A stretch of DNA of 58,102 bases from positions 1 to 58,102 of IMG/VR virus record IMGVR_UViG_3300046787_000172. One strand, 5' to 3'. The position numbers and the translations under genes are program-made. This document shows positions 1-58,102 of the stretch, piece by piece. This DNA comes from a virus. Lineage: Duplodnaviria > Caudoviricetes. The notes under the pieces are model-generated. The model did no database searches. It was not told the origin of the DNA and saw only the letters and a program-made list of their open reading frames with translations. Numbering within the stretch: position 1 is the stretch's first letter; each line of letters starts with the position of its first letter.

Positions 1-127
1 GACCAAGTTGCAAAAGCTTTTGGTATTACTGCTGGCCGTGTGCGCCAGATCGGAAACCCAGAAAAACTCGCAGACATCGCTGTGTCCATGGGGTTTAACC
101 GCAACCAAGTGTTCACTGAGCTGGGCA
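1..127. repeat. Terminal direct repeat, copy 1 (identical to 57976-58102); marks circular closure of the contig
   Basis: The first 127 nt match the last 127 nt, and the reading frame continues across the junction. Confidence 0.95.
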
Positions 128-3100
128 TTGAGTCGATCAATGAAGAGGCTGTTAACCTGACACAGGACAAAGAGTCTGTTGGCGGAGATGCTGATACCGA
201 GGGGGTGGTGGACGCTGCTGAGGTAGTGGTAGACGACACCGCTGAACGTGATGTTGAAGCTAACGCAGATGACTCTAGGTACTGGCAAAAGTCCAGTACT
301 GCTGGCAGTAAGTTGGCTGTGCAGATGGTACAAATTGCTGATGCCATTGATGCTTTGAGAGCTGCCGCCGCTGAGCTGAAGCAACTTGGCGTATCTGAAG
401 CTGCTGAATCTGTGCAGGCTCGTATTGACGAGCTGACAGCCAAGTCCGACACCCTGATAGCCACAGCGACTGAGAAGGCTGCGCCCAAAGCTGCCCCAGT
501 ATCCAAGGCCACAGCCACTGTCAAAGAAGCCCAGCAGCGTTGGAAAGACGCTGGCCGGGACATCACCAAGCTCTCGTCGGAGGACTTGGGCCTGCTGTTG
601 CCTTACGTGCGTGACACCATCAAAAACACAGAGCTCGCAGGCAAGATCACTGCTGAGCTGCAAAGCCGTGGAGAAGCCAATGCCGTTCAAGTCGAAAGCC
701 CAGCAGGGGTACCTGTTCAGCCAAAAGCCGAAACTGGCAAAGAAGTGGGCCGACAAGTACGGCGTGCCCCAAAGCCTGCCGCAGAAGGCAAAGCCCAAGT
801 CCCAGCCGTCATCCTCACCCAAGCAGAACAAGCCGCTCAAGCGTGGGATGTAGTCGCTGCTGACTTCCCAGAAGCTCCCAAGTTTGCGGACTTGACCAAG
901 GCCCAGCAGAACACCTTCATTGGCTTCGGCCCTGACAACTGGGAGCGCGGTGACGTTGAGCTTGAGTTGACCAAGCTGGCACGCGCTGCTGCGCCTACCC
1001 AGCGAGCCATACGATTGCGCCACGGTACAACCGCAGCCAACAAGGCCATGATAGAGAAGCTCGGACACATGGACCCGGAAGGTGGAGAGCGCCAGTACAC
1101 GTACTCAGAGTTTGGCCGTAAAGCTGTGTATCTAACCCGCCCTGAAGGCTGGTGGCTTGACAAAGAACAAGCCGCTGCTGGGCGTGCCGTTGTTTACGAC
1201 TCTTTTGTGGACGTTGAACTGCCAAGCGATGTAAACGTAGTCACAATAAATAACATGGCTGACTTTGAAGCGCTAGCTAAACGAGTCGGCGAACCAAGCG
1301 CACAGTCAATGGCTAACAAACTTGCCGTAGATGGGCTTGACTGGCTATCAACAGCCAAAGAATTGCGCTCTATCACATTAGACCAAGCAGTTCAAAAGTA
1401 CATTCGTGAGCAGAAACAGAGCGCCGCCAAGTATGGTGGGTTTGATACCGAGGGCGTTAACACCTTAGGCGAGCTGGCTGACTTTTTGAACGCCAATGTA
1501 AACAATCAGTACACTCAAACAACAGAAGCTGAACTGCGTACACGCATTCGCGACAACTGGCTTGACGCAAAGTCTTACGAGCTAAACACGTTTGGCGAAT
1601 CTGATGCAATGACGCAGAAGCTGATTGACGCTGGCGTGGACGTTATTGACATAGCCCCAGACGCAGACGTTGGAGTTGCTGCGGATCAGGTTGTGGTGTT
1701 GCGCCCTGAACTGGTCAAGCTTACCTCGACTGTAAAACAGCAAGAAGCTTTCTTACGTAAGTCGCGCCGCAGCGTCCGCACTGCTGACCAAAGCGGGACT
1801 GAGTTTGAGTCTGTTGAGGCTTCGCTGGACGACTTGTCCGGCTACTCTGAGGGTATCGCCGCTGGTATCCGTAGCCTGCGCAGCTCTGGCATGGGCAACG
1901 CTGTTGACGCCATTGACTCGTGGATGGTTACGTTCTCCCCAGTGTCGTGGGACGCCATCTACACCATGATCGACGGCAAGCGCACCATCATTTACAACGG
2001 TGTGATCCTCAAGGACAAGGTTCTGGCTACCACTGCCACGCTGCACGAAGTCGGCCATGGTATTGATGAGGTACAGGGCGGCGCTGGTAAGTTCTCCGGC
2101 GGTTCTGAGTTCAGAATGTCCCGCGTAAACGGCGAGCTGATGTCTATGCGTCCCGGCACGGTTGCAGACGAACTCTTGAACCACTGGGAAGACAGCAGTG
2201 AGACGTCTGCTTTGGGCGGCATGCTCAACTACCCACTGGACATGACAGACCCGGAAAACCGCTCGCTGACAATGCAAGAACTCCGTGAGGAAGTCTTCGC
2301 ACAGGTGTGGGCTTTTTCCAACATGAATGGCGGCATGGATTACCTCCGTGATAACCTGCCAACGACCTACGCTTTTATGGAGAAGGCACATGAACAAGTC
2401 AAAGCCACAAACTACCAACGCACCCAAGGTGCCCAGCAAGGTGCTCAGTCAGGACAAGTTCAAGCTGAACAGCAAAACGCGCAGCCTGCTGGAGCAATTC
2501 TTAGAGCCAGCCGCCAAGCCAAACAAGGACTGATCGACCGCAACATCGCTAAGCTGCCGAAGATGTCTCAGCAGCCGGTGAAGCGTGTAACCGAAGCCAT
2601 CGGTGATTTGGGTGGCAAGTACCTTGACTACGCCGTCTTTACCAGCGACTTGGTCAAGCGTGCTGTTGCTGCTGGCCTGCCTGCTGCTCAGACTTTCTCC
2701 GACCGCCTTGCTTCACGTAACGCCAAGGTCAGTGAAGAGGAACGCAAGATCGAAAAGATCGCCGACCGCTATGCGTCCATCGAAGATGAGAACAAGGGCT
2801 CCGGTCCCGGCTCGGTCAACGAGTTCTTATTTGAGTCCACCCGCACAGGCAAGTGGGGCTACGGAAAATACCGTGATGCCAAGATGGGCGCTGCGTTCGA
2901 TAAGCTGAAACCCAAGGCTCAGCAGTTCGTCAAAGACGTGTTTGCCCATGGTGATGCCACGCTGTCCAACAAGAAGAAGATTGTCTTGGAGGCAACCAAC
3001 TCCGAGTACGACGCCATGATTAAGGCAGCTCAGGACGCCGGTGACACCAAGACAGAGGCCACCCTCAAGGCTGAGAAAGCCGCCACGCTCAAGCGCTTCC

Positions 3101-5280
3101 AGACACTGTTCCGCATCCGCGATGGTGTACCCTACGCGCCCATCAAGCGCACTGGTTCGTACGTGGTAATTGGCGAGTCCGCTGAGTACCAAAAAGCCAA
3201 GGCCAACAACGACACTGCTACGCTCAAGAAGCTGGAGTCTGACCCAGACCACTACCATGTGTCGTTCACAGACACTAAGTGGCAAGCCCGTAGCCTGCGT
3301 GACAGACTGGCAGAGCAAGGCGTGTTCGCCGACCCGCAAGTTGTTTCGCGCTCTGAGTCGTTTGACGAGGCGTTCAGTGGCGAGGCCATGTTGCCAGCCC
3401 TGACAAAGATGCGTGCCGCTGTGGATCGTCGTGCTCAGGACTCTACTGGCAAGAAAGACCCAACTGCGGGCAAGCTGCTCAACATCATCAACCAGTTGTA
3501 CTTGGAGGCGTTGGCTGAGGGTAGTGCTCGCAAGTCTGAGATGCGTCGTCGTGGTGTGGCCGGTGAAGTGGACATGCTTCAGTCGTTTACCCAGCAGGGT
3601 CGTGCCGATGCCAACTTCTTGGCCAGCGTTGAGTTCGAGCCCAAGATTCAGGACGCCCTGCAGCAGATGCGCAACCAGTCACGCAAGGGTGACCGCGAAC
3701 GCAAGTCGGAAATCTTTGACGAGTTGACCCAACGCTACGCAGGTACGCTGGACCCACAGCCAAGCCCATTTATCAGTGGCTTGACCAACATGGCATCCAA
3801 GTTCTTCTTGGCCTCCAGCCCTGCGTACTACCTGCAGAACTTGACACAGCCGTTCATGATGTCGCTGCCTGCCATGGCAGGTCGCCATGACTACACCAAG
3901 GCCGCTGCAGAGCTGGCTAAAGCGTACGCTGAGCTTGGCCCACTGTTCAAGGATGTGAAGCTGTTTGACGAGCAGTTTGACTTCTCCGCAGTGCCTGCTG
4001 ATGTGCGTAAAGCCATCAACGAGTTGGTCAACCAAGGCAAGATCGACATCGGTCTGGCCACTGAGATCAACGAGTACAAGGTAGAAGCCGACAACAAACT
4101 CAGCAAGTTCGCGCAGCGCCTGAACAAGGGTATGCGTATGGCTGTCCAGAAGGTGGAAGCTACCAACCGCTTGTCTACAGCCATTGCAGCTTACCGACTG
4201 GAGTACGCCAAGACCAAGGACGCTGACAAAGCAACCCAGTACGCTGCTGACATCCTGACTGACACCCATGGCGACTACACCGCCTTTAACGCTCCTCGTG
4301 CGTTTAACACCCAGTGGGGTAAGGTGGCTTTGCAGTTCCGCAAGTTCCAGTTGATCCAGATCGCGTTCTACGCCAAGCTGATTCGTGATGCGTTCACTAA
4401 GCCGGACGAGCGTGCAGCCGCCATGAAGACACTGGCCTACTCGTTGGGTCACACTGGGGTGTTTGCTGGCCTCATGGGCTTGCCCGGCTACGCAGCTATC
4501 TCCGCCATCTTGGGTGCTTTTGGTGACGAGGACGAGCCGTACGATCTGACTGCTGAGATGCGCAAGGCGCTTGGCCCTGAGTGGGCTGACATGATTATGC
4601 GCGGCGCTCCGACCATTGTTGGTATGGACTTGTCCGGCAAGATCGGTGCAGGCAACATGCTGTCCATCATGCCATTCAGTGACGCTGACTTGAGCACCAA
4701 CGCAGGCCGCGCCGAAGCGTTTGGCACCTTGATGGGCGGTGCTGCTCTTGGCATGGCATCTCGCGTGGTAGACGGTCTTGGCTTGATCGCCAGTGGTGAC
4801 TACTACAAGGGTGTTGAGCGTGTGATGCCCAAGGGTGTGTCTGATGCGCTCAAAGCTGGTCGTCAAGCCACTGAGGGTATGACCCGCCGTAATGGTGATG
4901 TGGTCTTGCCTGAGAGCGAAATTGGCGCTATCTCGTCGGTGCTGACAGGTCTGGGCGTGCCATCTGTCCAACAGGCAGTGACTTACGAGCGTCAGAACCG
5001 CATGCGCGATATTACGCAGAACTTCCAAGACCGCACCACGCGTATCAAGAACGACTACGCCCAAGCAGTTCGCCAGAAGGACACTGCCGCCATGCAGCAA
5101 GCTCGTGAGGCATGGACTAAACTCCAGCAAGCACGTCAGCGTAACGGCTTGACACCACAACCAGTATCCAACCTGCTGAAAGCACCGCAGGAACAAGCGC
5201 AGCGTGAGAAGCGTACGATTGGTGGAGTACAGTATCGCGAAGGTCAGCGTAAACTGGCTGAAGATGTAGCAGCCAACTAA
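1..5280 (+). CDS. C-terminal part of the giant polyvalent (ejected/internal virion) protein that starts at 55954; ART-like, zincin metallopeptidase and PLxRFG-like regions
   Basis: Frame is open from base 1. Motifs: RHGT...AVYLT...DQVVVLRP (ART-like), LHEVGH...EEVFA (zincin), YAPIKRTGSY (PLxRFG-like). It follows two smaller ejection-protein genes. Confidence 0.85.
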   Translation, partial: DQVAKAFGITAGRVRQIGNPEKLADIAVSMGFNRNQVFTELGIESINEEAVNLTQDKESVGGDADTEGVVDAAEVVVDDTAERDVEANADDSRYWQKSSTAGSKLAVQMVQIADAIDALRAAAAELKQLGVSEAAESVQARIDELTAKSDTLIATATEKAAPKAAPVSKATATVKEAQQRWKDAGRDITKLSSEDLGLLLPYVRDTIKNTELAGKITAELQSRGEANAVQVESPAGVPVQPKAETGKEVGRQVRRAPKPAAEGKAQVPAVILTQAEQAAQAWDVVAADFPEAPKFADLTKAQQNTFIGFGPDNWERGDVELELTKLARAAAPTQRAIRLRHGTTAANKAMIEKLGHMDPEGGERQYTYSEFGRKAVYLTRPEGWWLDKEQAAAGRAVVYDSFVDVELPSDVNVVTINNMADFEALAKRVGEPSAQSMANKLAVDGLDWLSTAKELRSITLDQAVQKYIREQKQSAAKYGGFDTEGVNTLGELADFLNANVNNQYTQTTEAELRTRIRDNWLDAKSYELNTFGESDAMTQKLIDAGVDVIDIAPDADVGVAADQVVVLRPELVKLTSTVKQQEAFLRKSRRSVRTADQSGTEFESVEASLDDLSGYSEGIAAGIRSLRSSGMGNAVDAIDSWMVTFSPVSWDAIYTMIDGKRTIIYNGVILKDKVLATTATLHEVGHGIDEVQGGAGKFSGGSEFRMSRVNGELMSMRPGTVADELLNHWEDSSETSALGGMLNYPLDMTDPENRSLTMQELREEVFAQVWAFSNMNGGMDYLRDNLPTTYAFMEKAHEQVKATNYQRTQGAQQGAQSGQVQAEQQNAQPAGAILRASRQAKQGLIDRNIAKLPKMSQQPVKRVTEAIGDLGGKYLDYAVFTSDLVKRAVAAGLPAAQTFSDRLASRNAKVSEEERKIEKIADRYASIEDENKGSGPGSVNEFLFESTRTGKWGYGKYRDAKMGAAFDKLKPKAQQFVKDVFAHGDATLSNKKKIVLEATNSEYDAMIKAAQDAGDTKTEATLKAEKAATLKRFQTLFRIRDGVPYAPIKRTGSYVVIGESAEYQKAKANNDTATLKKLESDPDHYHVSFTDTKWQARSLRDRLAEQGVFADPQVVSRSESFDEAFSGEAMLPALTKMRAAVDRRAQDSTGKKDPTAGKLLNIINQLYLEALAEGSARKSEMRRRGVAGEVDMLQSFTQQGRADANFLASVEFEPKIQDALQQMRNQSRKGDRERKSEIFDELTQRYAGTLDPQPSPFISGLTNMASKFFLASSPAYYLQNLTQPFMMSLPAMAGRHDYTKAAAELAKAYAELGPLFKDVKLFDEQFDFSAVPADVRKAINELVNQGKIDIGLATEINEYKVEADNKLSKFAQRLNKGMRMAVQKVEATNRLSTAIAAYRLEYAKTKDADKATQYAADILTDTHGDYTAFNAPRAFNTQWGKVALQFRKFQLIQIAFYAKLIRDAFTKPDERAAAMKTLAYSLGHTGVFAGLMGLPGYAAISAILGAFGDEDEPYDLTAEMRKALGPEWADMIMRGAPTIVGMDLSGKIGAGNMLSIMPFSDADLSTNAGRAEAFGTLMGGAALGMASRVVDGLGLIASGDYYKGVERVMPKGVSDALKAGRQATEGMTRRNGDVVLPESEIGAISSVLTGLGVPSVQQAVTYERQNRMRDITQNFQDRTTRIKNDYAQAVRQKDTAAMQQAREAWTKLQQARQRNGLTPQPVSNLLKAPQEQAQREKRTIGGVQYREGQRKLAEDVAAN
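680..853 (+). CDS. Nested +1-frame small basic protein MPFKSKAQQGYLFSQKPKLAKKWADKY... (57 aa)
   Basis: GGAG at 670-673, 6 nt before ATG; genome-typical codons (TTC, AAG, TAC, CTG, GCC); resembles small phage proteins starting MPFKS. Confidence 0.7.
   Translation: MPFKSKAQQGYLFSQKPKLAKKWADKYGVPQSLPQKAKPKSQPSSSPKQNKPLKRGM
2390..2533 (+). CDS. Possible nested +1-frame peptide MNKSKPQ...LLEQFLEPAAKPNKD (47 aa)
   Basis: GGAG at 2379-2382, 7 nt before ATG; lies in the Gln-rich linker of the giant protein. Confidence 0.45.
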   Translation: MNKSKPQTTNAPKVPSKVLSQDKFKLNSKTRSLLEQFLEPAAKPNKD

Positions 5281-45663: not shown

Positions 45664-46162
45664 GGAAGAAACAGCACTGCTGGAGGTCCGCATCTGGGCT
45701 TTTGTTGTCGTGGCAGTGACGATCATCTTGTTTGGCATCGTGACGGCTTTGCTGTATTCGGTGACGTTCGTGACGCAGCCGATCAAGTCGATGGCACCCA
45801 TTGACCAAGCCTACACCAAGATGCTCAACGACATCGTGCTGCTGATTGTTGGCGGCATTGGCGGTGTCATTGGTAAGCGGGCGGTATCAACAGCAGCCAA
45901 GGCGTTTACGCCGCAGCCCCCACAGCAGCCGCAGCAGCCGACATGCCAGCCTATGGCGGGCGGGTACAACCACAACAGCTACGCTCCCCCGCAGTCCGCG
46001 TATGGCCTGCCAAGCCAGCCCTTTGGCGCTATGCCAGTGTGGAAGAACCCAGAGCTGGATGAGAGCTGGACACCCGGCCCACCCCCTACGACGCCACCAG
46101 AGCACCTTGAAGACGACGAGGACCGCGCTGAGATCGCTGCAGCTCGCAAGGAAACAGAATGA
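45620..46162 (+). CDS. Two-TM membrane protein (holin candidate), start uncertain
   Basis: GGAG before TTG at 45620; two hydrophobic helices; Pro-rich tail. Confidence 0.6.
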   Translation: MSKPNQPPSPPRSVEEETALLEVRIWAFVVVAVTIILFGIVTALLYSVTFVTQPIKSMAPIDQAYTKMLNDIVLLIVGGIGGVIGKRAVSTAAKAFTPQPPQQPQQPTCQPMAGGYNHNSYAPPQSAYGLPSQPFGAMPVWKNPELDESWTPGPPPTTPPEHLEDDEDRAEIAAARKETE

Positions 46163-46671
46163 ACCCGATGACCCTATACCCCACGCTGGCGCTCGTAGCT
46201 TTGCTGGCCATGGGCGGGTTCTACAAGTACGGGTACAGCAACGGCTGGGATGACCGTGACGCAGAAATGCAAATCGAGATTGCCAGAAAGAACGAAGAGG
46301 CGCGAGCCAAAGAGCAGGAGATGGCCAAGGCTGTCGCTGACAAAGAAACCGAACTCAGAAAGGCCAACGATGTCATCAGCAAAAAGCAAATGGACCTTAA
46401 TTCTGCCATTCGTGCTGGCAGGGTGCGCTTCCCCACCGCCAGTTGTCCACAAGCCCCCGCAAGTGCCCCCGTTGCCGCAGGAGATAGCAATCAAGCGCGA
46501 AGCCAACCTGACCCAACGCCTGACGCAGATACTGGTCCCAGCGAATCCGAGCGCCAAACCCTCGAACTGATCGCGCAGATTGCGGCTGACGGGGACAGGG
46601 CGATCAACCAATTGAACGCGTGCATCGACGCGTATGACAACATGAGGAACATCATCAATGCTCAACGCTGA
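46159..46671 (+). CDS. Rz-like inner-membrane spanin
   Basis: N-terminal TM, coiled coils, C-terminal QLNACIDAY; nested lipoprotein gene. Confidence 0.8.
   Translation: MNPMTLYPTLALVALLAMGGFYKYGYSNGWDDRDAEMQIEIARKNEEARAKEQEMAKAVADKETELRKANDVISKKQMDLNSAIRAGRVRFPTASCPQAPASAPVAAGDSNQARSQPDPTPDADTGPSESERQTLELIAQIAADGDRAINQLNACIDAYDNMRNIINAQR
46370..46570 (+). CDS. Rz1-like outer-membrane spanin nested in Rz
   Basis: +1 frame; lipobox LAGC; Pro-rich. Confidence 0.8.
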   Translation: MSSAKSKWTLILPFVLAGCASPPPVVHKPPQVPPLPQEIAIKREANLTQRLTQILVPANPSAKPSN

Positions 46672-54251: not shown

Positions 54252-55922
54252 ATGGCAGATTTCTTCAGAGGCCTCGCCGGTGGCATGCAAACCGGCCTTC
54301 AGTTTGGGCGAGCCATGCAAGAGCGTCAAGAGCGCGAACGTCTGCGTGAAGCCATGGGGCTTACCCCACAAGAGATGCAGCAGCGTCAGGCATCGCCAGA
54401 AGAACTGGGCCGCGCACAGGCGGAGACCCAAGCACTTGCTGCTGAAGACGCAAGAATGTTTGGACTTGGCCCACAAGAGCAGGCTGCATACGCCCCCCAG
54501 ATGCCCGTCGAAGGCCAGCGTGTCGGACTGCCACGATACCAGCTTGCCGGTCAGACATACGACCGCGCACCCACACAGCAGGAAATCCAGCAAGCTCGAT
54601 ACGGAGCCATGGCCGATGTGATCGCTGAGCGTGATCCTGCGCGTGCAATGGAAATGCGCCAGCGTCTGGAAGATCAGTTGTATCAAGCTAAAGAGCGCCC
54701 GCTTCGGTTGCAACAACTGGAAGGTCAAATCGCTGGACAGAAAACACAGCAGCGGCTTGCTGACGTTGGCTTAACCAAAGCTGAACGCGACCTTCAACAA
54801 ACACTGAGTTTCGATAGCGCGTTCGCAAAGATTAACGAAACCAAGTACGAAAAGCCAGAAGACCGAGACGCTGCTGTTTTAGCTGCTGTTGAGCAATTTA
54901 AAGGTCCAGAAGCCAAAGCAGCGTTGCAAAAAGATTACAGCGCCCTAGAACGTGACAAAATTGCGAAAGATGGTTTGAAGTTTGACCAAACTATCAAGCA
55001 GGCCCGCCTCAAAGGGCCAGCCGCAGCGCTCAAAGCCATTGACGACCTGAACGACAGTTTTAAGCTGGAGATTGACGGCTTTAACGTAACGCAGGTCAAC
55101 AACGATGGTACTCGGGTTCCGTTTCTGTCAGCAAAAACAGCTGACGAGTTTGCACTTAGCGTGGACTCGAGGATCAAAGAAGGTGGCGCTTTTGAGTTGG
55201 CCAAGTTCCGTCAAGATGAGCAGACAAAAGCTGCACAGATTGGCTACTACAACGCATTGGCAAAGAAGGCTGCTTCCGAAGGTGGGGCTGCTGCCAACCA
55301 ACTGTCTGGCGTACAAGTGGGTTATGCACGAGACCCAAAGACAGGTCAGCCAGTTCAAATTATGAGCGCCCTTCGTTTTAACAAGCGAACAGGTGATCTG
55401 GAGAGCGTGCAGGTTCCGCTTGAGCAGAACGTCGTCCCCGCAGCTGCGCTGGACCCAAAAAAGATTTCTGAAGCTGCTGAGCTGATGGTTGGCACACCAG
55501 TAGACCCGACAAACAAAAAGGGTCCGCAACACACTTTCCAAACAGCGCGGCAAGCTGTTACGGATCAGATTTTCAACCAATACTTGGGCACTGGAGATAC
55601 TGCGGCTGACCTCGATCCAAAAGGATTGGCGGCAAAGATTCTGGCTGGGCAACAACCAGCTGCTGCAACGCCTGCACAAAAACCCGCAAGAACTCCAGCC
55701 GCTGTTGGCATTGATCCAAACAGACCGCAGGCAGCGATAAACCCCGTTACGGGTCTTCCACGTGAAACGCCTGTAGGCGCACCAAACTTGGTTGCTGCTG
55801 TGGGTCAGGGGCTAGATGCAGGTCAGGCTCGCTACAAAGCCTATTTAGAGTCTAAAATAGCCAACAGACAACCGCTGACGGCAGACGAAAAAATTCGAGC
55901 GCAGAGGTTTGGCTTACAGTAA
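54252..55922 (+). CDS. Second ejection / internal virion protein
   Basis: FFRGLAGGMQTG start; helical; position. Confidence 0.65.
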   Translation: MADFFRGLAGGMQTGLQFGRAMQERQERERLREAMGLTPQEMQQRQASPEELGRAQAETQALAAEDARMFGLGPQEQAAYAPQMPVEGQRVGLPRYQLAGQTYDRAPTQQEIQQARYGAMADVIAERDPARAMEMRQRLEDQLYQAKERPLRLQQLEGQIAGQKTQQRLADVGLTKAERDLQQTLSFDSAFAKINETKYEKPEDRDAAVLAAVEQFKGPEAKAALQKDYSALERDKIAKDGLKFDQTIKQARLKGPAAALKAIDDLNDSFKLEIDGFNVTQVNNDGTRVPFLSAKTADEFALSVDSRIKEGGAFELAKFRQDEQTKAAQIGYYNALAKKAASEGGAAANQLSGVQVGYARDPKTGQPVQIMSALRFNKRTGDLESVQVPLEQNVVPAAALDPKKISEAAELMVGTPVDPTNKKGPQHTFQTARQAVTDQIFNQYLGTGDTAADLDPKGLAAKILAGQQPAAATPAQKPARTPAAVGIDPNRPQAAINPVTGLPRETPVGAPNLVAAVGQGLDAGQARYKAYLESKIANRQPLTADEKIRAQRFGLQ

Positions 55923-55953
55923 CGTGTAGTTCAAGCGAAGTAAAGGTGCCCCC

Positions 55954-58102
55954 ATGCCGTCTATTGCAGACCTGCGATCCGCCCTTGGGGCGTTTGCCAA
56001 CGACAAAAGCGATGAGCAGCTTCTGCAACTAGCTTCCACTGCGGCGGGGGTTTCCCCGGGCCGTATTGCTTCTGAGTATGGCTACAAGCCAACGGAATCC
56101 GGCGTTGCAGGGCTTCGCACTGGCGCTGCCATTGACCGCTATCAGGCAGGTCTGTATGGGCTGGGCGAGGCTGTTACCGGCGCTGACTTCTTTCGTCGCG
56201 GTCGCGAAGCCAATGAGTTTGAAGCCAACGTAGCATCTGAACGTGCTCGCGCTCAAGGCGCAATTGAGAGCTTTGAAGACGTCCAAGGTATTTCTGACCT
56301 GCCAAGCTATGTTGGTGGTTTGGCCATTGGCTCTGCCCCTTACATGGTTGAAGCCCTTGGCGGCGGTTTGGCTGCTCGCGGGTTGATGTCTGGCACTCGT
56401 GCCGCTCTGGGTACTGCCCGGGCTGCCGGTGACGTTGGTGCTGCTGCACAAGCCACTCGAGCGTTGCGTGCTGGCCAAACTGTTGGCGGTGTAGCTGCTG
56501 GTTATCCATCAGCAGTTGGTGACATTTTGCAATCGCAACGAGAGCAAGCCGACGGTCAGATTGACTTGGGTGCTGCGGCAGCGCTCGGCGTGCCGTACTC
56601 GGCGCTCAACGCTTTGGGCATTGAAGGTGCGCTGGCACGGCAGCAAGGTATTCGCTCGGGCATTGCCGCTTTGGATAGTATTCAAGGTCTGCGTGGCGGT
56701 CTTGCACGTGCTGGGGCTTCTGGTGTACGTACCGCTGGTATAGAAGGCGGCACCGAGACTCTGCAGGAGATGACCAGCCAGCTTGGTCGCATGGCCGTTG
56801 ACCCAAATGAAGCGTTTTTGTCCGATGCTGCGCTGGGTCGTTACAAAGAATCCGCCATCGGTGGCGCATTGCTCGGCGGTACTATTGGTGGCGCTACAGG
56901 CTTTGGCCGCAGTGAAGGTTACCGAGCTCCCATGCAGGAGCGCGACCTGACTCAGGAAGACACAAGTACCGAGCAAAAACCAGTTCTTGGTTTGCAGTAC
57001 AACCCACTTGCAGGCACTCCAATTGTTTTCCCGGATGGCACTGTTGCCTTGGGTAGTGAGCAGGAAATGCTGGCCCGCACTGGTATCAAAATGCCTGCCG
57101 CTGGCGAAACAGACCTGACTGCGCCTGCAGCTACAACTGCTGCACCTGCCGGTGAAACTAAACCGACAGTGCCGTCCATCTTCAGCGAAACAGATACTGC
57201 ACTGAACAAACTTGGTGTCAAGCCTACAAAGAATTCTCGCGGCATCTACGACTACTTGGTGGCCGAGGGCATCGACCCTGCTTCACCAGAAGCTGAACCA
57301 GTACTGAACGCTTTGGCCAGTAGCAAACTTGGCGAAGCCCGCAAGGCCGTTGGCGAAATCATTCGAGCAAGGAGTCCCCGTGGCACAGGAGTTTCTACTG
57401 TACAGCAGCCTGCAGGAGGCGTGGGAGTCGGGGGCGCTGTCGTTCAAGGAAGCGTGGGAAATGCAAGACCAGCTACTCCTGTCGCGGGAGCAGTGGTCGG
57501 AGGTACCCCAGTCACTGGAGCCCCACTTCAACAAGCTGGCATTCTTCCAGTCGCCAGCGGCCAACCATCTACCACTGTAACTACCGGAGCACCAAGTGGC
57601 ACTCAAGCCCCTCAAACCATCCAAGCAGCGCCGCAAGGACAAACAACCACCAGAGGTGCCGCTGGTACCACTACGGTAAAGCCAAACACGACCCTGCGTC
57701 TGACTAAGCAAGAAGACATTAAAGACCCAGACGCCGCGCTGGCTGACTTCGTTGAGATCGCTCGTGAGACCGGCAACACCGCTGGCATTGACGCAGCCTT
57801 GGCCGATGCTGCCAACAAGCGTCAGGATCAAAGGGATTTCACGAAGGCTGACCTCGACGAGATCATTGAGGCCCAACTTGGCAAGGGCAAAAACAAAGAG
57901 CGAGACCGCCAAATCTTGCGTGCCTACGTGCTTGCGCGTAAATCCGTTCCAGACAAGGATAAGGGCAGAGTTGTTGACCAAGTTGCAAAAGCTTTTGGTA
58001 TTACTGCTGGCCGTGTGCGCCAGATCGGAAACCCAGAAAAACTCGCAGACATCGCTGTGTCCATGGGGTTTAACCGCAACCAAGTGTTCACTGAGCTGGG
58101 CA
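55954..58102 (+). CDS. N-terminal part of the giant polyvalent ejection protein (continues to 5280; ~2433 aa in total)
   Basis: ATG at 55954; frame open to the window end and in frame with base 1; Gly/Ala-rich helices with an EGGTETLQE motif; absent from the ORF track because it has no stop before the window end. Confidence 0.85.
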   Translation, partial: MPSIADLRSALGAFANDKSDEQLLQLASTAAGVSPGRIASEYGYKPTESGVAGLRTGAAIDRYQAGLYGLGEAVTGADFFRRGREANEFEANVASERARAQGAIESFEDVQGISDLPSYVGGLAIGSAPYMVEALGGGLAARGLMSGTRAALGTARAAGDVGAAAQATRALRAGQTVGGVAAGYPSAVGDILQSQREQADGQIDLGAAAALGVPYSALNALGIEGALARQQGIRSGIAALDSIQGLRGGLARAGASGVRTAGIEGGTETLQEMTSQLGRMAVDPNEAFLSDAALGRYKESAIGGALLGGTIGGATGFGRSEGYRAPMQERDLTQEDTSTEQKPVLGLQYNPLAGTPIVFPDGTVALGSEQEMLARTGIKMPAAGETDLTAPAATTAAPAGETKPTVPSIFSETDTALNKLGVKPTKNSRGIYDYLVAEGIDPASPEAEPVLNALASSKLGEARKAVGEIIRARSPRGTGVSTVQQPAGGVGVGGAVVQGSVGNARPATPVAGAVVGGTPVTGAPLQQAGILPVASGQPSTTVTTGAPSGTQAPQTIQAAPQGQTTTRGAAGTTTVKPNTTLRLTKQEDIKDPDAALADFVEIARETGNTAGIDAALADAANKRQDQRDFTKADLDEIIEAQLGKGKNKERDRQILRAYVLARKSVPDKDKGRVVDQVAKAFGITAGRVRQIGNPEKLADIAVSMGFNRNQVFTELG
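57380..57580 (+). CDS. Nested +1-frame acidic protein MAQEFLLYSSLQEAWESGALSFKEAWEMQDQLL... (66 aa)
   Basis: AAGGAG at 57369-57374, 5 nt before GTG; globular-looking sequence where the host frame is low complexity. Confidence 0.65.
   Translation: MAQEFLLYSSLQEAWESGALSFKEAWEMQDQLLLSREQWSEVPQSLEPHFNKLAFFQSPAANHLPL
57596..57679 (+). CDS. Possible nested +1-frame basic peptide MALKPLKPSKQRRKDKQPPEVPLVPLR (27 aa)
   Basis: GGAG at 57586-57589, 6 nt before GTG; follows the previous nested ORF. Confidence 0.4.
   Translation: MALKPLKPSKQRRKDKQPPEVPLVPLR
57976..58102. repeat. Terminal direct repeat, copy 2
   Basis: Identical to 1-127. Confidence 0.95.

Follow-up and report, generated by a model that had tools for sequence, protein, structure and literature searches.

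Introduction

The embedded spanin genes of phage lambda, Rz and Rz1, are the familiar example of a small gene lying in the +1 frame inside a larger gene on the same strand and served by its own ribosome-binding site, and overprinted genes are also well known in phiX174 and other small viruses (B and K within A, and E within D). Typically, such overprinted pairs combine an ordered, constrained frame with a disordered one. Here we describe an arrangement of this type in a 58,102 bp stretch of viral DNA, the complete IMG/VR virus record IMGVR_UViG_3300046787_000172, which we refer to in its entirety as the window; the coordinates of GTG and ATG codons are window positions. Two small open reading frames (ORFs), ORF-A and ORF-B, are nested within the gene for a giant internal virion protein (the host gene, with its host frame), and comparison with relatives indicates that ORF-A very probably, and ORF-B probably, is a real protein-coding gene, located on the same strand as the host gene but one base out of its frame, in a spacer where the host protein is of low complexity.

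The arrangement resembles lambda Rz/Rz1 in having a same-strand nested +1 gene that is served by a ribosome-binding site of its own, and in that the products would be made from the same late mRNA. It differs in several respects. ORF-A and ORF-B have no sequence similarity to Rz1 and are not lipoproteins, as neither contains a cysteine, a hydrophobic N-terminal segment, or a signal peptide with a lipobox; the gene that contains them has 2,433 codons and encodes a virion protein, not a spanin; and there are three nested genes here (the third, ORF-C, is described below), each within a low-complexity linker, with the host frame as the relaxed partner. As in overprinting of the phiX174 type, one stretch of DNA specifies two proteins in different frames, but the genome is 58 kb long and under no obvious size pressure, and the disordered partner is the linker of the long host protein rather than the nested protein. 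The host gene in turn appears to resemble those of polyvalent and DarB-like proteins, in that it encodes a giant multi-domain late protein whose C-terminus matches phrog_10089 and giant proteins of cultured phages; it gives no match in Pfam to a methylase, a helicase or any other named domain. The words ‘overlap’, ‘linker’ and ‘low-complexity’ do not occur in the main text of the survey of polyvalent proteins (Iyer et al. 2017, PMC5512222), and nested genes fall outside the description given there. A full-text literature search, whose scope excluded subscription journals and supplements, found no report of nested genes within genes for giant or polyvalent phage proteins, nor of the protein families described here.

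Results

Organization of ORF-A and ORF-B

ORF-A and ORF-B are both in the +1 frame relative to the host ORF that starts at position 55954, and their coordinates are listed in Table 1. The description in an earlier note on this DNA, in which AAGGAG-N5-GTG opens a 66-aa ORF and GGAG-N6-GTG, five nucleotides past its stop, opens a 27-aa basic ORF in the same frame, is exact. That note also called ORF-A acidic, Trp-containing and helical-looking, and its product indeed has nine Asp or Glu residues, three Lys or Arg and three Trp, an isoelectric point (pI) of 4.5, and an AlphaFold model consisting of three helices; ORF-B has eight Lys or Arg among its 27 residues and a pI of 11.1. The low complexity that it ascribed to the host frame is likewise evident, with Gly, Ala, Val, Pro, Thr, Ser and Gln constituting 91% of the host residues under ORF-A and 93% under ORF-B, compared with 52% of the whole protein. 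Open +1 frames by themselves are not beyond chance in this gene, and the case therefore rests on comparison with relatives, among which the pattern of conservation exceeds chance.

The frame under selection at ORF-A

Several lines of evidence point to purifying selection acting in the nested frame of ORF-A and not in the host frame. First, pairwise differences among 26 unique ORF-A sequences are distributed 26/23/51% over ORF-A codon positions 1, 2 and 3, and 28/27/45% in the set of sequences found through the host protein, while the N-terminal domain of the host protein has an ordinary 25/17/58% when phased on the host frame. Second, mean pairwise amino acid identity is highest in the ORF-A frame, at 81%, with the host and third frames at 66% and 65%, respectively. 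Third, the ratio of nonsynonymous to synonymous substitution (dN/dS, by the Nei-Gojobori method) is 0.24 in the ORF-A frame, compared with 1.49 and 1.31 in the host and third frames, respectively, for a set of 18 sequences (the window and 17 others recovered with the host C-terminus); conservation confined to the host frame, one of the outcomes that the earlier note regarded as telling against a gene, is thus not what is seen. Fourth, when the window is aligned with 16 distant members, the z scores over shuffled sequences have a median of 13.3 and a minimum of 7.1 in the ORF-A frame, whereas the medians for the same 16 are 0.7 for the host-frame peptides and 2.4 in the third frame. Finally, the island of host residues 468–545 that contains ORF-A has 0.13–0.2 differences per site against approximately 0.5 in its flanks, and is the most conserved stretch in the N-terminal half of the host gene.

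The composition of the region is consistent with this. The codon-usage log-odds score is 0.13 for ORF-A and −0.15 for the host frame beneath it; the values for true genes are 0.37 ± 0.15 in frame and −0.56 ± 0.21 in the +1 frame. The guanine-plus-cytosine (GC) content by codon position is.67/.36/.79 in ORF-A, resembling the.60/.45/.66 of true genes, and the host frame is inverted. Codon usage suggests that the ORF-A frame is dominant and probably the older of the two, with the host linker having been superimposed on it.

Conservation of ORF-A among relatives

Relatives were collected in three independent ways, using the host N-terminus, the C-terminal 606 residues of the host protein, and the ORF-A peptide. 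All seven loci found with the host N-terminus (60–92% host identity) have ORF-A open with its stop position unchanged, and each has a Shine-Dalgarno sequence and a start codon, which varies among GTG, ATG and TTG. ORF-A is carried by 18 of the 29 loci found with the host C-terminus. Among the other 11, two begin inside the C-terminal part of the gene and one begins at a contig end just downstream of the expected position of ORF-A; the remaining eight (L060–L067), which are the most distant (23–58% C-terminal identity), have no relative of ORF-A that is detectable even with the family profile. The ORF-A peptide recovered 28 viral loci and one contig from a genome bin. The distant members aligned too variably for their alignment to serve in searching for loci, and as a single-protein query, P0034 yielded one doubtful locus (L070) and P0063 yielded none. 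Among cultured phages, DNA and protein searches with the host N-terminus, ORF-C and two distant relatives of ORF-A gave no match, ORF-A itself being covered only within the DNA query.

A homology search with the 66-aa peptide, which the earlier note had put forward as a check, reveals an unnamed family. Profile searching of 1.84 billion proteins returned 45 ORF-A clusters, nearly all of 64–71 aa and matching end to end, with the pattern MSA...L...L..AV..GALSL.EAW.LQD..LL...P..L.P...RL.L.....N.LPL. The members of these clusters were predicted by gene callers, mostly on short contigs, and their sources leave them nameless or label them ‘hypothetical protein’. All 19 of the distant members whose DNA was examined are intact and lie in the +1 frame inside an ORF that runs without a stop for 675 to 2,179 codons; they all start with ATG, usually with a GGAG-like motif 5–8 nt upstream, and the host frame is rich in Gly, Ala, Val and Pro. 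Their contigs are 6 to 63 kb long, six of them 57–63 kb, and the fetched loci have 56–69% GC.

Altogether there are 46 unique ORF-A loci, and all 46 are intact, in keeping with the proposal that this is a real overlapped gene; stops or frameshifts in the +1 frame of homologues, named beforehand as counter-evidence, occur in none of them. Start codons are ATG in 21, GTG in 22 and TTG in three, and stop codons are TAA in 31, TAG in six and TGA in nine. A core Shine-Dalgarno sequence (GGAG, GAGG or AGGA located 4–13 nt ahead of the start) is present in 40 of the 46, weak in four and missing in two. The product is 65–68 aa long in 45 of the loci and 53 aa in one, this shorter form (L006, L035 and L042, all one contig) having arisen by a natural 39 nt in-frame deletion that removes 13 residues, including part of predicted helix 2 and the loop that follows. 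The host frame is also free of stops from 100 codons before to 100 codons after ORF-A in all 46 loci. Taken together, these comparisons leave us highly confident that ORF-A is a real gene under selection.

Conservation of ORF-B

ORF-B is present in 22 of 30 close loci, in which the start is kept (13 GTG, eight ATG and one TTG), GGAG or GGAAG is located 6 nt upstream, and the product is 24–28 aa long. Its core is also found in the +1 frame in 15 of 17 metagenome loci that were identified through ORF-A alone, where it is 381–1,842 nt past the ORF-A start and encodes 37–79 aa, with one locus incomplete at its end. Among the long forms (L071–L086), many end in a shared motif, C-(L/R/K)-(I/V)-(L/F/V)-(N/D/E)-(V/L/F)-(P/K/R)-D, with those of L074/L075 and L076 having instead a long Arg/Trp-rich tail that looks helical. 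The core occurs, too, in four distant relatives of the host gene that have no ORF-A (L060–L063). The earlier note described ORF-A and ORF-B as a mini-operon, and the two ORFs are indeed adjacent here and both apparently real, but the distances in the distant relatives indicate that their close spacing is a feature of the lineage of the window rather than of the family.

The 33 unique ORF-B sequences share the core (V/M/L)-A-L-K-P-L-K-P-S-K-Q-(K/R)-R-K-D-K, with a start codon (GTG, ATG or TTG) at a fixed place in all 33 and GGAG-like motifs 6–8 nt upstream in most. Identity over the core is 72% when it is read in its own frame, as against 49% and 46% in the host and third frames, respectively, and 49% of the differences fall at its own third codon position; the synonymous changes include exchanges of serine codons between TCC or TCG and AGC. 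These sequences were picked by the peptide core and the figures are consequently inflated, the near-complete presence of ORF-B in sets gathered otherwise being the fairer evidence. With its start, Shine-Dalgarno sequence and 15-residue core kept throughout the 33 sequences, ORF-B is probably a real nested gene under selection, as had been proposed, and belongs to a family whose short form is the one in the window.

Alternative explanations

A number of observations weigh against the interpretation of ORF-A and ORF-B as genes. A stop-free run of at least 83 codons in the +1 frame occurred in 99.5% of 1,000 shuffles of the host gene codons, and no sigma-70-like promoter was found in positions 55700–58102. 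Contigs of relatives covering positions 57403–57553 and 57772–57922 are present in two metatranscriptome runs, although contigs prove neither transcription nor frame; a third RNA run, from the study in which the window probably originated, had no contigs of relatives over the region, which does not show that transcription is absent. Initiation within the host gene would compete with ribosomes translating the host frame. Several of the comparison sets were collected with the nested peptides and are biased toward in-frame conservation, a bias that the host-found sets remove for ORF-A and only in part for ORF-B. Neither product has a match in Pfam (best E-value 0.1, far under the cut-off), PHROGs (E-values up to 1) or the ESM Atlas, and Foldseek comparison of the ORF-A model with the PDB gives no usable fold match (best E-value 4.1). 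The remaining points concern ORF-B, which is missing from eight of the 30 close loci (through deletion, a different downstream segment, or decay), is decayed in L050 of the host C-terminus set, lacks in the window the C-terminal motif carried by the distant 37–79-aa forms, and has the host phase pattern (30/24/46%) in an alignment based on the host protein, which is poor at this position.

These features of ORF-B also favor an explanation in which only ORF-A (and ORF-C) is functional here and the 27-aa ORF is an inactive, truncated remnant of a longer nested gene, with conservation persisting at the 5′ end alone. We think this unlikely, given that in the close clade the first 16 codons are identical as peptide while the codons change synonymously, and that the start and GGAG are kept in the 22 loci with all three start codons in use. 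It is far less probable that ribosomes enter ORF-A through a programmed frameshift out of the host frame, which would produce a truncated N-terminal product carrying a 66-residue trans-frame tail, with the Shine-Dalgarno-like sequence acting as a stimulator. Internal motifs of this kind do stimulate frameshifting in prfB and dnaX, and there is a CCC-C run just ahead of the GTG in the window, but the relatives share no common slippery sequence; the 20–30 nt before the start differ completely among lineages, and the start codon is always present while switching among ATG, GTG and TTG. Furthermore, the +1 frame contains a stop nine codons upstream in L012, L018, L020 and L021, and directly before the ATG in L071, L074 and L075, in which translation must therefore start at that ATG. 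Slighter still is the likelihood that what is conserved is the nucleic acid itself, whether as a structured RNA, as a site for packaging or recombination, or because phages recently exchanged the segment, and that the +1 frame is incidental to it. Such an explanation would fit the mosaic flanking host sequence and the much lower divergence of the island compared with its flanks, yet the differences recur with a period of three bases in register with the +1 frame, with the low dN/dS given above, and similarity of the protein persists at 30–40% identity among loci whose nucleotides have diverged and whose GC content ranges from 56 to 69%. RNAalifold finds no support from covariation (the covariation term being +0.25 kcal/mol), and there is no Rfam match for the ORF-A/ORF-B region.

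ORF-C and a survey of the host gene

A sliding analysis of 19 full-length host genes shows only two places at which host codon position 3 is not the most variable, residues 468–545 and residues 893–953. The first corresponds to ORF-A and the second to ORF-C, a third candidate nested gene whose 57-aa basic product begins MPFKSKAQQGYLF... and which is preceded by its own Shine-Dalgarno sequence. Both of these phase-flipped islands are of low divergence, with that of ORF-C at approximately 0.15–0.2 against approximately 0.5 around it. Of 30 sources recovered with the host C-terminus, 20 contain ORF-C, as do the distant L065 and L066; 57% of its differences are at its third codon position, and identity reaches 85% in its own frame, compared with 69% for the host frame. 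Comparison with PHROGs gives one weak match, to phrog_1375 (E-value 0.0012).

The possibility that every +1 ORF of the host gene is a gene was considered and rejected, since among the 14 ORFs of at least 40 aa in this frame only ORF-A and ORF-C coincide with phase-flipped conserved islands. The short core of ORF-B shows phase reversal only in its own alignment. The ‘hidden gene layer’ invoked in the earlier note thus appears to be real but small, with reversal at the scale of the whole gene restricted to ORF-A and ORF-C.

Predicted products

The AlphaFold model of ORF-A, built with 61 sequences, has helices at residues 9–17, 22–34 and 44–57 followed by a free tail, with a predicted local distance difference test score (pLDDT) of 78.1, having risen from 68.5 with a deeper alignment, and a predicted template modeling score (pTM) of 0.59. 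Residues Leu7, Leu11, Ala14, Trp26, Gln29, Asp30 and Pro43 are invariant or nearly so, the core being EAW-x-LQD, and the C-terminal tail N-x-L-P-(L/V/I/A) is conserved; we take this tail to recall only loosely the QLxLxL-type peptide that binds DnaN, the sliding clamp. In structural comparisons the best VIA-align score against 48,161 chains is Z 4.1, and the best match in BFVD is A8HNW3, an unnamed viral protein of 110 residues (E-value 0.085; template modeling score 0.72 on the query, and root-mean-square deviation 1.9 over 58 columns), neither comparison giving a usable match. We infer that ORF-A encodes a small putative partner-binding protein made late and alongside the giant protein.

The genome and the giant host gene

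By gene content the genome looks like that of a podovirus, encoding a portal, a major head protein, an internal virion protein, tail fibers, an Rz-like spanin, an endolysin, a DNA polymerase and a primase-helicase. The Rz-like gene (46159–46671) contains a +1 ORF at 46250–46570 on the plus strand, with an internal ATG near 46370 and a lipobox-like sequence (...LPFVLAGC...), and this embedded frame looks like the classical arrangement of an Rz1-type o-spanin.

A 127 bp direct terminal repeat is present, positions 57976–58102 being identical to 1–127, and the record is a circularly permuted assembly cut within the giant gene, which consequently appears as two open-ended ORFs; because of the repeat, the ORF that runs off the end of the window continues at position 1. 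When joined, the host gene is 7,302 nt long and extends from the ATG at 55954 to the stop at 5280, with 2,433 codons and only one, terminal, stop codon. The last 600 residues of its product match phrog_10089 (‘DarB-like antirestriction’) with an E-value of 8.5e-63, and in tblastn searches these C-terminal 600 residues match giant proteins in 35 records of cultured phages at about 25–29% identity; among the 25 matches listed are Pseudomonas phage Skulduggery, Erwinia phage PEp14, Vibrio phage douglas 12A4 and Microcystis phage Mwe-JY07, with genomes of approximately 56–63 kb. The N-terminal 60% of the protein (residues 1–1500) is mosaic and near saturation among relatives, with approximately 0.5 differences per site, and the C-terminal 40% (residues 1500–2433) has 0.14–0.3 differences per site with an ordinary codon-phase pattern.

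Two further observations were made in the host gene. Residues 649–691 (window 57898–58026, plus strand) have a weak match to the helix-turn-helix domain Sigma70_r4 (E-value 0.001; 19 bits, where the Pfam cut-off is 24.1). A 266-aa antisense ORF lies opposite the gene on the minus strand at window positions 57283–58083; long antisense ORFs are frequent at such GC content.

Table 1. Features of the host gene and its nested reading frames (window coordinates).
Feature	Position	Strand	Description
Shine-Dalgarno sequence AAGGAG of ORF-A	57369..57374	+	5 nt ahead of GTG at 57380
ORF-A, nested +1 frame	57380..57580	+	GTG start, TAA stop at 57578–57580; 66-aa acidic protein, three predicted helices
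Shine-Dalgarno sequence GGAG of ORF-B	57586..57589	+	5 nt past ORF-A stop, 6 nt before GTG
ORF-B, nested +1 frame	57596..57679	+	GTG start; 27-aa basic peptide, short form of a 24–79-aa family
Shine-Dalgarno sequence GGAG of ORF-C	670..673	+	6 nt before ATG
ORF-C, candidate third nested +1 gene	680..853	+	ATG start; 57 aa, basic, pI 10.6; host residues ~901–958
Host gene, 5′ part	55954..58102	+	Giant internal-virion, polyvalent-like protein; continues at window position 128 via the repeat
Host gene, 3′ part	1..5280	+	Positions 1–127 duplicate 57976–58102; C-terminal 600 residues resemble giant ‘DarB-like’ virion proteins

Discussion

What is new here is the presence of three nested genes in the linkers of one gene for a giant virion protein, kept across a broad and diverged clade of phages in which the host frame is relaxed. 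With a Shine-Dalgarno sequence and a start codon for each nested gene, ribosomes would initiate internally on the late mRNA of the host gene, while those translating the host frame would pass through and yield a linker of Gly, Ala, Val, Pro, Thr and Gln. Such a linker would need only to remain open and flexible, and selection there would therefore act on the nested proteins. ORF-A and ORF-B would then be small accessory proteins that are produced along with the giant ejected protein and act by binding to partners; for ORF-A the partner may be a protein, contacted through its conserved face and tail, and for the Lys/Arg-rich ORF-B it may be a nucleic acid or an acidic partner.

Genes of this type are invisible in annotation because gene callers forbid long same-strand overlaps, and ORF-A has been called only on short fragments that have a broken host gene. 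The nested genes belong to three unnamed protein families, one of which comprises 45 clusters. The contrast between a dN/dS of 0.24 in one frame and 1.49 in another is an unusually clean natural case of opposite constraint on two frames, and is therefore useful for testing methods by which overlapping genes are detected. It also provides a rule for searching, in which low-complexity linkers of giant phage proteins that have a flipped codon-phase pattern would lead to more such genes.

The nested genes are the best-conserved parts of the fast-evolving N-terminal half of the host gene, and the C-terminal third of the host is about as conserved; this high conservation suggests that they are important to the phage. 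A broader scenario, which we put forward only tentatively, is that a clade of freshwater podophages with genomes of approximately 58 kb has two or three small genes, forming an old and conserved set, within the linkers of the gene for its giant ejected protein. The small genes would be the older and dominant ones, the giant gene having arisen by read-through fusion across them, and the acidic ORF-A and the basic ORF-B and ORF-C would work together with the giant protein during virion assembly, DNA ejection or counter-defense. If this were so, the ‘spacers’ of polyvalent proteins in general would be places in which to seek unannotated genes.

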